Below are positions 819-43,992 of a DNA stretch of 64,000 bases, piece by piece. How positions within the stretch are numbered: the first letter of the stretch is position 1; each line of letters starts with the position of its first letter. Source of the DNA: Fistulifera solaris (taxonomy: Eukaryota); contig AP026136.1 in the NCBI GenBank assembly GCA_030295235.1, positions 806,001 to 870,000 of the forward strand. Direction: 5' to 3'. The notes beneath the pieces were generated by a model. It saw only the letters and a list, made by a program, of their open reading frames with translations. It was not told the origin of the DNA and did no database searches. Made by a program: the position numbers and the translations under genes.

Positions 819-3800
819 TTAGATTCCATCTTCACTAGTTCCGGTAATCGGGTAAGCTACAGCAGAATGTAGCGGGGGATCCGACGCGTGGAAAGGGCCT
901 GGCTGTGAAATCGAAATCGGCAATTCGTACCCGTTTCTTCGGAGCGACAACTGAACATAAGAAGACAAGGTTCCTGGCCGAGTTGGAATACCTACAAGGT
1001 CCAATTCCGCGTTTTCGGGGAGCGGCCCTTCCGTTCTGCCACTAATGATCCAGTCGCTTGCATCACTGGTAACTTTATAACATACTTCTTGTCCACTTAA
1101 TCCGGAAGCATCAACATTGCACTTGATGTGCACAGGGCGACCAACTGTACCTTGTATAGCCGAGGGCATTAAGTTGACTGAAACCGGTGGCATCTCAGCT
1201 AAGGGTAACGGCATCTTTGGACAAGCTTGGCGAAGTATATGGGATTCTTCGAAAGCTACTCCCTCCTCATTATCAAAGACCAGTACAACCGTAGCTTTCA
1301 CGGTATTCGGCACATCCCCAGTCACGCGACATTCAAAGTTCAGCATGATCGTTTCACCGCAGCATACATCTGTATTGGCCAAGGTTTCGTTTAAATCCGC
1401 AGTAAGTTTGAGATAAGCAGGTAACTCAATTTTCCATTTTCTGACCAAAAACGATTTTGGAGCATGACACTCGAAAGCAGCATGAAGCACGAGCCGGTCC
1501 GATCTGTACGGGATAACAGTAACCTCCTCTATGACAAAGCCAGTCTGACCGAGTGCTGGAACCGCTATATCCAGCTGTGCCTCGAACTCTTCACCTTGAT
1601 CACGGCAAAATCGTGTGTTTGTTTGTACCTTCAACACACCACCACCACCGTTATCGGCGCATTGCACCCTAATTGGAATGGAAACGATGCTATCCGCTGA
1701 TGTAGAATCCAGATCGATCTCCAGAGCGGATAGCAATGTATCATCGTCTTGTTTCCCAACGAAAATGCCCGGGGATCCCACAAGCTGAGATTTGCCTTGT
1801 ATGATGGTGTCCTTTCCGCTGTTGAATTTCAGTAACAAATTCTGTGTGTGCCCAGGAATCAGGTAATCTGGTGCAATCGTTAGCGTTTGTGAATGCTCGC
1901 AAGGAATTACATCCACGCGAATGGTGGGTTGTTTTCTTTTCTTCGGATTATAAGTAAATATGATATTGTTCCAACTCATTGAGATGGTCGAAAGAATAAA
2001 TTGCCCAGACCGATTCGGGACCCATTTGTACTGATACTCATTCCTCCCAGGCTTAACAGTGACGTCGCTCAGCTGCAGCTCGATAAACACTTCAGATTCT
2101 TTCACTTCGATGCTGTCTTCCATTGCCGCAACGTAAGATTGAAAAGGAACAAGCGAAATCGAAAGTGACCCGACTTTCACATCCTCTGGCAATTGACTCG
2201 TCACAATGATTTTAACAGTAACTGTATCGCCAATTGTGTAAACTCGTTTAAAGAGCTTGCGCTCAGTACCATTAGCAGCACTCAATTCAAATTCATCAAG
2301 CGATACGATCGTCTGGAAGAGTGGCGCGCCCGACAATATTGTTGTAGTGTCACATCCTGATATGACCGCAAGCAAATCTCTGAACACAACATCTTTGGCT
2401 TTAGGAGGTGCATGTGGGGCACCGAAACAGCAGACAAGGGTTTCGAGATATTTCGTGCCTGATTCGAACTGACGCTCTAATTGACAAAGGCGAAATAGTA
2501 AGAAAAAATAACAACTCTTCCATTCCTCGCATTCCTGAGCCACTTTAAACATTTCTTGTGCAGCAGTTCTTAAGCGATTCTGCTTGATGGCAATGTCGAT
2601 TGCTTCTAGGCGTAAGCAAGAAGCAAGGCGCTTCTTTCCTGAGGCTTCTTGATTTGCAGCTAATAACTTAGTCAGACTCATGTAAATCCACTCAAACCCT
2701 TCTTTAGTCGAAAGAGCATCCGCGACAACATTTGCATTGTTGCGCAAGCTCGCTTCTTCAGGATCTTCGCGAGAACTGTTGGTGGGTTCGCTCCATGGTG
2801 TCCATTCAACATTTGTCTTCAAATCGTCTGGAAAATCCTGTCCGCCAAGATTAGGAGTAACAGGAATCTCCATCAGTTTGCCCATTCTTAGCAACCTCAA
2901 GCGCGTGAAACCCATTAGTTCACAAAGCGTTGCCGAGAACGCCTGGTCCTCAAAGTTTGGATTTTCCGTGTATGAATACGTCGCCTCCTTCACGACCCAA
3001 CCGAATTCCAGACCCCATTTGTTGACTTCGATCAATCGATTAGTGTCATTTCCCGCCCGACCTTCTTGTACTTGCCACATCTTTCGGGCAAAACCTAAAC
3101 AGCGCTGCAGAACGGCATTCGCGTCTTTCATTGCGAACAAGTATTTTGTTTCTCGCACGAGGAAGTAATATTCCAATTCGTAGGCGACCTCAGTAACACT
3201 AGCCGCTGCACGAGCATATTGTCGAAAAGCAAGAGGATCGCCCTGTAGTGCAATTTGCAAAGAGGTATAGTTTATAGCCAATCCTCGTTTCGCACTCTGC
3301 TTGTCCCAATTCGGAAGCATGGCCCGCAACTCTTCATATTGCACCAGTGCATCCGCATATAATTGACACTGCTCATACGAAAAAGCCATGCTCTCTTTCA
3401 CCAAAAAATATTGGCGATGATCGGCAGATACTTTCTTCAACACCTCTTTATAGTTGCGACACTTGTCTTGTAAATTATCGACAATGGTGGCCCCGAGTGC
3501 CGAAAGAAAGCTTTCCCATTCCAGGAAAGGCGGTGTTTCATCTCTCGCAAACGAAGCCAACGCACACACTCGGGCACTGGGAAAATCGGCATGCATTTTG
3601 CGCAACAAATCTCGTTCGAGTTTGGTTTTGTGACGAATGGGTGAATCTGCTACAATGACATCCATTTCATCGTCCGAACTGTTGTTGCCACCACCACCGC
3701 CACCCAGTTCTTCGGCACTTCCGGCCGTCCCACTGATGCGGTGGCGTGCGGCCGCGACGCGACTGGCAAAGGCGGCGACGCGGGATTTTGCGCCGGACGA

Positions 3801-4430
3801 TGTGCTTTCACCGACCGAAGACGAATTGGATATGGTGCTGGCATCGTCCGAGATGGATTGATAATTGGGGACCACGACAATGAGGAAGTTCGGTAACGTT
3901 TCGTTGTTTTTAAATTCAGGATTGGCTTGTAATTGACTGACAAAGATTTGAATGGAAGGCTTGACTTTGAGCCGATAATGCTCGAGACTGTGACATTCCG
4001 CCAGGTAAACGTAAGTCATGGGATTCTGGTGCCATTCTGATGCATCTTCGGCTCGATCAACCATGAGAATACCCCCATGACTCACGGTCGGCTGCAGTGA
4101 AAATTCGGGGATGGTAATGGACTCTCCGGTACGGACGTTCTTGTACGGTATGTCTTTCAGTGTGTTTTTATATTCGCGCGACAAGATCTTGGTGATCTTT
4201 TGATAGAGCTCTAAATGGCGCGATGCATCGGCGGTTCGGGGTGATTGAATTCTTCCCGAAGCAGCAGAGGTCGGATCGAGAAAATGAACGGATATTTTTG
4301 ACCGGGGTACATCATTGTCAGTGTCCGTTGACTTGTCGTTGAGGTAAGCGAAGCCGCTACTCAAGTGTTCGAGAAATAAGTTTTCTTGATCAAAGTAGGT
4401 AGCCGACGCGGTAGGTGGATCTGCAGGCAT
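819..4430 (-). CDS. TRAPPC10: TRAPP II complex subunit TRAPPC10/Trs130-like, 1203 aa
   Basis: Long intact ORF. YFLVKESMAFSYEQCQLYADALVQYEEL matches the TRAPPC10/Trs130 motif. C-terminal beta-rich region with WIISGRTEG and LVGIPTRPG. Confidence 0.8.
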   Translation of the reverse strand: MPADPPTASATYFDQENLFLEHLSSGFAYLNDKSTDTDNDVPRSKISVHFLDPTSAASGRIQSPRTADASRHLELYQKITKILSREYKNTLKDIPYKNVRTGESITIPEFSLQPTVSHGGILMVDRAEDASEWHQNPMTYVYLAECHSLEHYRLKVKPSIQIFVSQLQANPEFKNNETLPNFLIVVVPNYQSISDDASTISNSSSVGESTSSGAKSRVAAFASRVAAARHRISGTAGSAEELGGGGGGNNSSDDEMDVIVADSPIRHKTKLERDLLRKMHADFPSARVCALASFARDETPPFLEWESFLSALGATIVDNLQDKCRNYKEVLKKVSADHRQYFLVKESMAFSYEQCQLYADALVQYEELRAMLPNWDKQSAKRGLAINYTSLQIALQGDPLAFRQYARAAASVTEVAYELEYYFLVRETKYLFAMKDANAVLQRCLGFARKMWQVQEGRAGNDTNRLIEVNKWGLEFGWVVKEATYSYTENPNFEDQAFSATLCELMGFTRLRLLRMGKLMEIPVTPNLGGQDFPDDLKTNVEWTPWSEPTNSSREDPEEASLRNNANVVADALSTKEGFEWIYMSLTKLLAANQEASGKKRLASCLRLEAIDIAIKQNRLRTAAQEMFKVAQECEEWKSCYFFLLFRLCQLERQFESGTKYLETLVCCFGAPHAPPKAKDVVFRDLLAVISGCDTTTILSGAPLFQTIVSLDEFELSAANGTERKLFKRVYTIGDTVTVKIIVTSQLPEDVKVGSLSISLVPFQSYVAAMEDSIEVKESEVFIELQLSDVTVKPGRNEYQYKWVPNRSGQFILSTISMSWNNIIFTYNPKKRKQPTIRVDVIPCEHSQTLTIAPDYLIPGHTQNLLLKFNSGKDTIIQGKSQLVGSPGIFVGKQDDDTLLSALEIDLDSTSADSIVSIPIRVQCADNGGGGVLKVQTNTRFCRDQGEEFEAQLDIAVPALGQTGFVIEEVTVIPYRSDRLVLHAAFECHAPKSFLVRKWKIELPAYLKLTADLNETLANTDVCCGETIMLNFECRVTGDVPNTVKATVVLVFDNEEGVAFEESHILRQACPKMPLPLAEMPPVSVNLMPSAIQGTVGRPVHIKCNVDASGLSGQEVCYKVTSDASDWIISGRTEGPLPENAELDLVGIPTRPGTLSSYVQLSLRRNGYELPISISQPGPFHASDPPLHSAVAYPITGTSEDGI

Positions 4431-42900: not shown

Positions 42901-43057
42901 ATGGAAGCCATTCATCAAATTGCTTCGACAATCAACAACGGTCTCAAGTACCTTCAAGATAATTCACTCGTGATCTTCACTGGCGTGGCGGTGTTATGGG
43001 TCATCCGCGGGCGGTTTATGCAATGGCTCGATCCGTCCAAGCAAGGTGTCACTCTAA

Positions 43058-43095
<38 letters not shown>

Positions 43096-43470
43096 CCATC
43101 ACCATCATCACTGGGTACAAACCAAGACGAACGCTTGAATGATATGTTGCGTGTGCGCCAGAAACAGCAAGAAGAAGCGGAACGAAAATCCAAACTAGCC
43201 GCACAAGAGCGAAAAGTAAAAGAAGCGGAAGAAAAGAAACGACGGAACGAACTCAATTTGAAAAAGAAGAAAACTGAAACCAAAGGAAATACTTTGGGGA
43301 GCAGTGGAGGCGGCTATAATCCTTTACAACCATGGTCTTCTGGTTCGGGTGGAAGTTATAAGTAAGTGCAACGCGTTTCGCGTCTCTCTTGAAGATGATC
43401 CACTTTCACTCACAAATGGCAATGTCTTTTTAGAGCCCAACGGCGTACTGTTAACCGCGGCTGACGTTAG
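42901..43470 (+). CDS. SELENOS: Selenoprotein S/K-like ER membrane protein; exons 42901-43361 and 43434-43470; in-frame TGA 43462-43464 as candidate Sec
   Basis: Single N-terminal TM helix. Coiled coil MLRVRQKQQEE..K.....RK.KE.EE.KRR. Gly-rich GGGYNPL motif as in SELENOS. Splicing of the GT-AG intron 43362-43433 gives ...SYKAQRRTVNRG-U-R-stop. Confidence 0.78.
43060..43110 (+). repeat. (TCA)n trinucleotide microsatellite encoding poly-Ser
   Basis: Run of tcatcatca... within the SELENOS-like exon 1. Confidence 0.9.
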
Positions 43471-43616
43471 TTGTCCGACTTTGATCAACCAAGCATGACT
43501 TTGGGAAAAAGTCGGAAACTACAACAAAACCATATTCGATTAATGTGTGCTCGCACTAAACTTATACGGCAAACTTGAATGACATCAGTACATGGCTGCT
43601 GATTGAACAGTAGTTT

Positions 43617-43645
43617 GCTGAGCTGAGCTGAGCTGAGCTGAGCTG
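43617..43645 (+). repeat. (AGCTG)n pentanucleotide microsatellite, ~6 units
   Basis: gctg agctg agctg agctg agctg agctg. Confidence 0.9.
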
Positions 43646-43956
43646 TATCTTACTTTGTTTTCAACTATGAATTTCATAATCTTTTGCCAAGCCGTTTCCA
43701 CAGAAATTCTTAATTAATAAATAGAGCTTTGTAACACTTTCACATGGATAATTCATTAGGCGAATGTAAGCAAACCTCCTTTTCGAGTTTCACTATCTGA
43801 TCAATGTCTAGACGACCTTTTTCACGGAATTCCAGTCTTATGAGCTGGAGCCAGGCTCTAGAAATTATAGGTCACGCTGCGACTGCGTTTCCTACCCGCA
43901 TTAACAATGCGCAGCATTTTATCGCATTACCAGTATTACACCTCAACCTCAACAAT

Positions 43957-43992
43957 TACCGTACCGCACCGTACCGTACCGTACCAGGTACC
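43957..43992 (+). repeat. (TACCG)n array ending in TACCAGGTA, ~30 bp upstream of an ATG
   Basis: taccg taccg caccg taccg taccg taccaggta cc. Confidence 0.8.

Follow-up and report, generated by a model that had tools for sequence, protein, structure and literature searches.

A diatom SELENOS gene with a predicted penultimate selenocysteine and a miniature SECIS candidate

Results

A diatom SELENOS gene interrupted by a short intron

The window, a 64-kb stretch spanning positions 806001-870000 of contig C12 in a 51.7-Mb genome, contains on its plus strand a two-exon gene (42901-43470) that is a diatom SELENOS, a member of a known family with an annotation short by two residues. With high probability, the gene encodes a SELENOS orthologue whose second-to-last residue would be selenocysteine (Sec), inserted at a conserved TGA in a genome that encodes the Sec machinery. 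What sets it apart as a variant is the missing resolving cysteine and the miniature SECIS candidate.

The frame opens with ATG at 42901 (+) and, unspliced, ends at a TAA (43363-43365) that lies within the GTAAGT donor starting at 43362. The first-pass annotation had placed here an intron ending with the acceptor TTTTTAG at 43433. This proposal was borne out by a contig of run X3, which joined 43361 to 43434, skipping a 72-nt GT-AG intron (43362-43433, phase 2) whose in-frame TAA stops gene callers. Exon 1 (42901-43361), delimited by the open reading frame and by RNA contigs covering it, encodes a short N-terminal helix, a transmembrane (TM) helix, a poly-Ser insertion, a coiled-coil helix and a Gly-rich linker with GYNPLQPW. 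The coding part of exon 2 (43434-43470) encodes an Arg-rich tail, UGA, Arg and TAG. The spliced coding sequence of 498 nt specifies 165 amino acids. The TGA (43462-43464), the predicted Sec codon at residue 164, is followed by CGT and then TAG at 43468-43470 (+), and the protein ends NRG-UGA-R-stop; the initial reading of a TGA one codon ahead of a TAG was correct, coordinates included.

A loose end in run X2 opened with the same exon 2 letters, and the second subgenome copy of the gene was spliced at the equivalent place in both X2 and X3. Both X2 and X3 stem from a single study, and their RNA label is a guess; we took them as RNA because their contigs are spliced. Run X1 was unspliced and looks like DNA, and runs X4-X13 contributed only small shares, with nothing from X10. 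Use of a different acceptor would have spoken against the proposed tail. An acceptor at 43435, 2 nt further on, would give a short Cys-ending tail; it was absent from every listed RNA joint. Six AG sites within 200 nt were also translated as possible acceptors and set aside, as the RNA showed only 43433.

The second copy (the homoeolog) is located on contig C11. Gene pairs of this C11/C12 kind occur throughout the genome, and the C11 product falls into one cluster with a public protein of Fistulifera solaris; the organism is thus apparently an allodiploid pennate diatom. The homoeolog also has the intron, and two environmental sequences (L012 and L015, see below) have an intron at the equivalent position. 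Automatic annotation had been expected to miss the Sec codon; for the homoeolog, the public model removes the intron and already bears the name Selenoprotein S, and only its end, at the UGA, falls short.

The genes flanking SELENOS (634 amino acids upstream on the minus strand and 960 amino acids downstream) gave no convincing Pfam match and no link to it. Elsewhere in the window there are an L7Ae-family gene at its start (317-574), a TRAPPC10-like gene on the minus strand (819-4430) and a CCGTA-type repeat near 43958-43985. A bacterial promoter and terminator scan found nothing; bacterial models do not apply to this gene.

Conservation of the TGA codon

The homoeolog keeps the intron and the TGA CGT TAG ending, while intron and UTR sequences drift: within exon 2, 35 of 37 nt are the same and the final 33 nt are unchanged. 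A metagenome scan yielded seven loci. L012-L014 represent one sequence, ending in RRG-TGA plus six codons, and L015 and L018 another, ending in RRG-TGA plus two codons. Two loci were left out of the count: L017, which lacks the tail and matches the motif by chance, and L016, which ends inside the intron before exon 2. TGA was found in 4/4 distinct sequences with DNA over the codon (three lineages, window and homoeolog included), and substitution by TAA or TAG, which would argue against Sec, was seen in none of these four independent sequences. Of the pattern anticipated in the first-pass annotation, conservation of the TGA stood; a second stop exactly one codon later did not, being displaced to two and six codons in the other two lineages. 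In L012 (1006-1027), the six residues past the UGA include a Cys at the fifth position after Sec, which might serve as a resolving cysteine on the downstream side; this extension falls inside the stem-loop next to the UGA.

Among 76 representative proteins, 22 contained the spliced tail, 19 ended at the intron donor, 29 ran into the intron and 6 were unclassified. The 22 spliced-tail homologues all ended at the Sec position or shortly ahead of it (18 of them in Gly), and none had Cys plus further residues there. P0087, available as protein only, runs on as G-W-G-R at the point where the other members of its cluster end; translation of a TGA as Trp would produce such a sequence.

Could the TGA be an ordinary stop, in a SELENOS homologue that has lost Sec, ends at Gly and acts as a membrane adaptor only? 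The resolving cysteine is absent, no canonical SECIS is present and all database models end at the TGA; a conserved ordinary stop would account equally well for database proteins that end at Gly, and the DNA over the codon comes from three lineages. Against this reading, every sequence that covers the codon at the DNA level has TGA, the codons past the TGA and the second stop are kept in the homoeolog, a kink-turn hairpin specific to the Sec genes of this genome follows the gene (see below), and algal SELENOS is described as almost exclusively of the Sec form (PMC7539508). We therefore regard an ordinary stop as highly improbable and read the codon as Sec.

Assignment to SELENOS rather than SELENOK

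The protein has one TM segment (residues ~22-40, mean hydropathy 1.6), which is modelled as a helix at 22-43; the structure model further shows a long, 56-residue helix (71-126) and a disordered Gly/Ser tail. Like SELENOS/VIMP (PF06936), it thus combines a single N-terminal TM helix, a cytosolic helix, a disordered Gly-rich tail and a penultimate Sec, predicted in the diatom; a TM helix, a cytosolic helix and a loose tail are described for human SELENOS (PMC3628699). The diatom protein is 165 amino acids long and the human protein 189. The diatom protein ends U-R and the human U-G. A TCA-type triplet repeat (43054-43112) encodes the poly-Ser/Pro insertion of ~15 residues, which is private to the window copy, being absent from the homoeolog and the relatives. 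Human SELENOS contains GGGYNPL.

The first-pass annotation had called the gene SELENOS/SELENOK-like; the SELENOS half of this name held and the SELENOK half did not. Neither the window exon 1 product nor the spliced homoeolog product matched Pfam Selenoprotein_S, and the Pfam matches of exon 1 (SR-25 and others) were ascribed to the poly-Ser stretch and the charged coil. Of the 63 aligned relatives, 10 did match Selenoprotein_S at E<=0.1, and among 13 proteins scanned, P0034 and P0064 passed its cut-off over profile positions 106-192. P0064 and the homoeolog product could be aligned from end to end (34%, pairwise E 1e-18). In UniRef, the name Selenoprotein S is given to the homoeolog product of 148 aa and to a member from Grammatophora, each ending at the Gly before the UGA, and the best three ESM Atlas feature hits were Selenoprotein S clusters (0.94-0.90). 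No solved SELENOS fragment was matched in PDB sequence searches or Foldseek. The passing relatives and the UniRef name led us to assign the gene to SELENOS rather than SELENOK.

SELENOK (PF10961) is likewise a small selenoprotein that spans the membrane once; its Sec is close to the C terminus, and it has no internal resolving cysteine. A basic residue after Sec and the missing resolving cysteine would be SELENOK-like. Together with the lack of a direct Pfam match and a low-complexity coil that inflates similarity, they could indicate SELENOK, or a separate diatom family resembling SELENOS only in composition (TM helix, charged coil, Gly/Arg tail). However, the diatom protein has the long coiled coil and the YNP motif of SELENOS; the relatives that pass the Selenoprotein_S cut-off do so over positions 106-192 with the non-coil YNP motif and tail; the tails of relatives resemble the human peptide printed in PMC6844570; and the Atlas hits are SELENOS. 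SelK_SelG (PF10961) did not match the protein and was absent among the 25 families listed for the 63 relatives. A genome search with PF10961 matched nothing anywhere, controls included, and so says nothing. Membership of SELENOK or of a separate family is accordingly very unlikely, and the gene is treated below as SELENOS.

The protein contains no cysteine at all, and the equivalent of the human resolving Cys174 is absent. Among 21 scored spliced tails, only P0034 and P0064 keep this cysteine; most of the diatom group therefore cannot form an internal selenenylsulfide. A resolving cysteine is typical of vertebrate SELENOS and not of the whole family.

A short SECIS candidate downstream of the gene

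The first-pass annotation gave no SECIS element. We found a non-canonical candidate of 52 nt at 43568-43619 (+), identified by its fold, its alignment with the homoeolog and its match to a relaxed rule. Helix 1 pairs 43568-43575 with 43612-43619. AUGAC (43579-43583) and UGAA (43604-43607) form a kink-turn core between the two helices, and a 7-bp helix 2 is capped by a 6-nt apical loop without AA or CC. The homoeolog retains the core and both helices, with changes that are wobbles or lie in the loop. As in type I/II SECIS elements, there are a helix 1, an internal loop and a kink-turn core of the form AUGAN/NGAN, which contains a pyrimidine-pyrimidine pair and whose first pair is purine-pyrimidine; the predicted location is in the 3' UTR, 114 nt from the UGA. 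Compared with that of SELENOS elsewhere, the candidate is much shorter and has no AAR. A GCTGA-type pentamer repeat (43619-43645), shorter in the homoeolog, lies directly 3' of it. Further downstream, an AATAAA/ATTAAA hexamer (43716-43721, +), the only one in 43471-43900, may be a polyadenylation signal; it is not kept in the homoeolog alignment. RNA contigs of the window copy end at 43467, short of the hairpin. A spliced homoeolog contig (X2) runs 104 letters beyond 43482, approximately to the 5' arm, and none bridges the hairpin.

Rfam SECIS families did not match the candidate, nor did they match any of nine further loci, GPx and SelT genes among them; an Rfam miss is thus uninformative in this genome. 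The primary SECISearch pattern requires AA or CC 10-13 nt past the quartet and then 15-39 nt to GA (PMC2375036), whereas the diatom candidate has 20 nt between the core strands and fails it. Seven of the 25 listed candidates pass the pattern, three of them with AA. Folding of the hairpin was no better than that of shuffled sequences in the homoeolog (z +0.4), L012 (z -1.3) or L015, and the best candidate of L015 has GG in place of GA in the 3' core.

We formulated a relaxed rule consisting of the core, at least 5 closing pairs and 16-50 nt inside, with AA not required. Within 500 nt after the gene, it matched 15/19 Sec genes, 0/8 Cys paralogues and 12/254 window tiles, with thresholds set after seeing this gene and GPx, most tested genes being homoeolog pairs, three anchors (two controls and one Sec gene) lying away from the stop, and the register matched at L032 later rejected. 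The four misses were L015 (GG for GA), L035 (GGA core) and L036/L037 (a longer, bulged, near-canonical hairpin). GGA-core SECIS elements occur in Toxoplasma. In both copies of the SELENOS gene, the candidate was the sole relaxed-rule match within 500 nt after the stop. It was also the sole match of model R1 in the 64-kb window, being itself among the R1 training sequences. The first pair was purine-pyrimidine in 25/25 listed elements (six picked by eye), and GA stood ahead of the core in most of them; the rule required neither. SBP2 prefers a purine-pyrimidine closing pair (PMC1874613). Pair counts from alignment A5 (98% paired, 67 two-sided changes) were discarded because its rows had been chosen for pairing.

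A held-out test covered 33 loci of the MsrA and Pyr_redox_dim families. Two matches of model R1 fell below E 0.01, and both lay ~190 nt behind the two TrxR genes ending in GCUG. The frozen rule, applied up to 500 nt from the match end, matched 3/4 Sec genes and 3/26 non-Sec genes.

Inner lengths ranged from 16 to 39 nt: SELENOS (20), GPx (24) and SelM-like (16-19) elements were miniature, and those of MsrA and SelU1 near-canonical. The genome thus spans miniature to near-canonical SECIS elements. Each of two SelM-like loci (L032:1983-2144 and L035:1871-2029) has a pair of hairpins built on an AGGAC/UGAU core, with 6-7 bp and a loop of 4-5 nt. The 3' regions of L033, L034, L043 and L044 also show two tandem SECIS-like hairpins behind genes with a single Sec codon. 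Our literature search, which covered mainly open-access papers, found no description of a short or AA-less diatom SECIS.

If the UGA is Sec, recoding might be driven by an element other than 43568-43619, either one lying further downstream or the proximal stem-loop by itself. Helix 2 of the candidate is about half the 12-14 bp of type I elements (PMC13059024); it has no AAR, mutation of which prevents Sec insertion in mammals (PMC2792357); and the folding scores in the homoeolog, L012 and L015 are weak, with an imperfect core in L015. On the other hand, neither the relaxed rule in the 500 nt after the stop of either copy nor R1 in the window, the training caveat applying, found any other match, the GPx genes of this genome have a similar 24-nt AA-less hairpin and nothing else, and all 25 listed cores close with the pair type that SBP2 prefers. 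We consider a different element unlikely and retain 43568-43619 as the SECIS candidate.

A stem-loop next to the UGA

A second hairpin, the proximal stem-loop (43468-43521, +; folding z -3.2), follows the UGA, with its main stem (43474-43482 with 43508-43516) starting 9 nt past it. Equivalent hairpins of different sequence were found after the UGA in the homoeolog (z -3.8), L012 (z -3.7) and L015 (z -2.7). We did not accept the AUGA at 43495 as a SECIS core, since it is missing in the homoeolog. The diatom stem-loop resembles that of human SELENOS, which also begins 9 nt after the UGA (PMC3628699). Six of eight human C-terminal Sec genes can form a UGA-adjacent stem-loop, and in a later study deletion of the human SELENOS stem-loop alone raised recoding, leaving its role unsettled (PMC6844570).

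Sec machinery and duplication of eEFSec domain 4

Six tRNA-Sec matches exceeded the Rfam cut-off, and the TCA anticodon was confirmed in the loci scanned. Four contigs carry these genes (L004-L007, L048, L049): C27 and C29 have a tandem pair each, and on C3 and C4 the tRNA gene follows a ribosomal L7a gene at a distance of ~300 nt. The L7Ae gene beside tRNA-Sec was considered as SBP2 and rejected, since it reads as ribosomal L7a. SepSecS is encoded in the genome, as are SBP2 (an L7Ae-domain protein with SBP2 chain 7zjw_B as best PDB match, E 3e-20) and eEFSec (E 3e-79 to 5izk). GPx, SelT, SelM-like, SelU-like, TrxR and MsrA genes have an in-frame TGA at the catalytic place. By gene content, namely tRNA-Sec, SepSecS, SBP2, eEFSec and TGA in known Sec genes, the organism can insert Sec. 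Single-base frame slips in homopolymer runs were noticed at L065 and L066 (near 1495-1510), L003, L022, L035 and L043; at L065/L066, the two MsrA copies, the slip comes directly behind the Sec codon. These are probably assembly errors.

The two eEFSec copies, on C12 (L091:1081-2871, minus strand) and C11 (L090), each contain two tandem PF21131 matches. Like human eEFSec (5izk, 7zjw), the diatom protein has domains 1-4, which align to residue 464 of a 596-aa open frame; unlike the human protein, it goes on with a linker and a second PF21131-like domain. The two domain 4 copies are 30% alike (pairwise E 8e-5). Alone, the second scored 26.8 bits in Pfam (cut-off 27), and it scored 30.5 and 27.4 in the genome search; its ESM Atlas lead was under 0.9. 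Because a single-sequence fold of the two copies gave a pLDDT of 38, the fold of the second domain rests on the Pfam, pairwise and Atlas evidence.

Both domains were present in 41/41 homologues retrieved with the first domain, of which 23 were new, and in 48/48 retrieved with the second, the latter by construction. Two-domain eEFSec proteins occur in Fistulifera, Seminavis, Epithemia and the centric Thalassiosira profunda, so that pennates and centrics are covered. Judged from sequence, the duplication looks diatom-wide in a sampling composed of diatoms. In a literature search covering mainly open-access papers, we found no description of a duplicated eEFSec domain 4.

Discussion

We propose that the observed transcription and splicing yield an mRNA with the UGA and a 3' UTR hairpin. 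SBP2 would bind the kink-turn core of 43568-43619, at a spacing from the UGA that lies beyond the reported minimum of 51-111 nt (PMC3753652). eEFSec would bring Sec-tRNA to the UGA, and one further codon would be read before the TAG. The hairpin right after the UGA may slow the ribosome or tune termination. Under selenium shortage, the UGA would act as a stop and give a 163-residue form.

By analogy with its family, the product would be a single-pass ER membrane protein, with the coiled coil and the flexible Gly/Arg-rich tail in the cytosol. SELENOS/VIMP functions in ERAD (PMC12936836), and the diatom protein is somewhat likely to reside in the ER membrane and serve ERAD in the same way, possibly as adaptor and reductase. 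Having no cysteine, the window copy is unable to make the intramolecular Cys-Sec bond known from human SELENOS; the Sec would most likely react with a partner or a second copy and be re-reduced from outside.

Algal SELENOS, almost always of the Sec form, is also among the least widely found algal selenoproteins; the survey reporting this includes Fistulifera solaris, so the present gene may already be listed there and diatom SECIS elements drawn (PMC7539508). Since SELENOS is known from algae, the gene closes a small gap; of wider interest is the decoding signal. For mammals, both the apical AAR and helix 2 length are regarded as required, and SELENOS and several other Sec genes here seem to manage without the apical AAR and a full helix 2.

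A broader, tentative reading, which we hold to be possible but on balance doubtful, is that diatoms rebuilt the Sec signal, many of their SECIS elements being a kink-turn core with a 6-8 bp cap and without conserved apical adenines, read by an eEFSec with a double domain 4. The window SELENOS would then carry one of the smallest such elements. Domain 4 of mammalian eEFSec binds the SECIS apical loop (PMC12254956); the second domain 4 might make up for the missing reach or replace the AAR contact. A causal link of the second domain 4 to short SECIS elements is hypothetical, and it is disfavoured by the 16 Thalassiosira selenoproteins found via canonical SECIS patterns (PMC2375036) and by the near-canonical elements in this genome.

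If this link is real, SECIS-based searches would undercount diatom selenoproteins. It would also explain the missing SelS and SelK in the SECIS-led search of Thalassiosira, neither of which is listed in Table 2 of PMC2375036. Diatoms would then offer a natural minimal SECIS with a matched factor, with which the purpose of the apical loop could be tested, and a cysteine-free SELENOS tests whether the function of the family needs the Cys-Sec bond.
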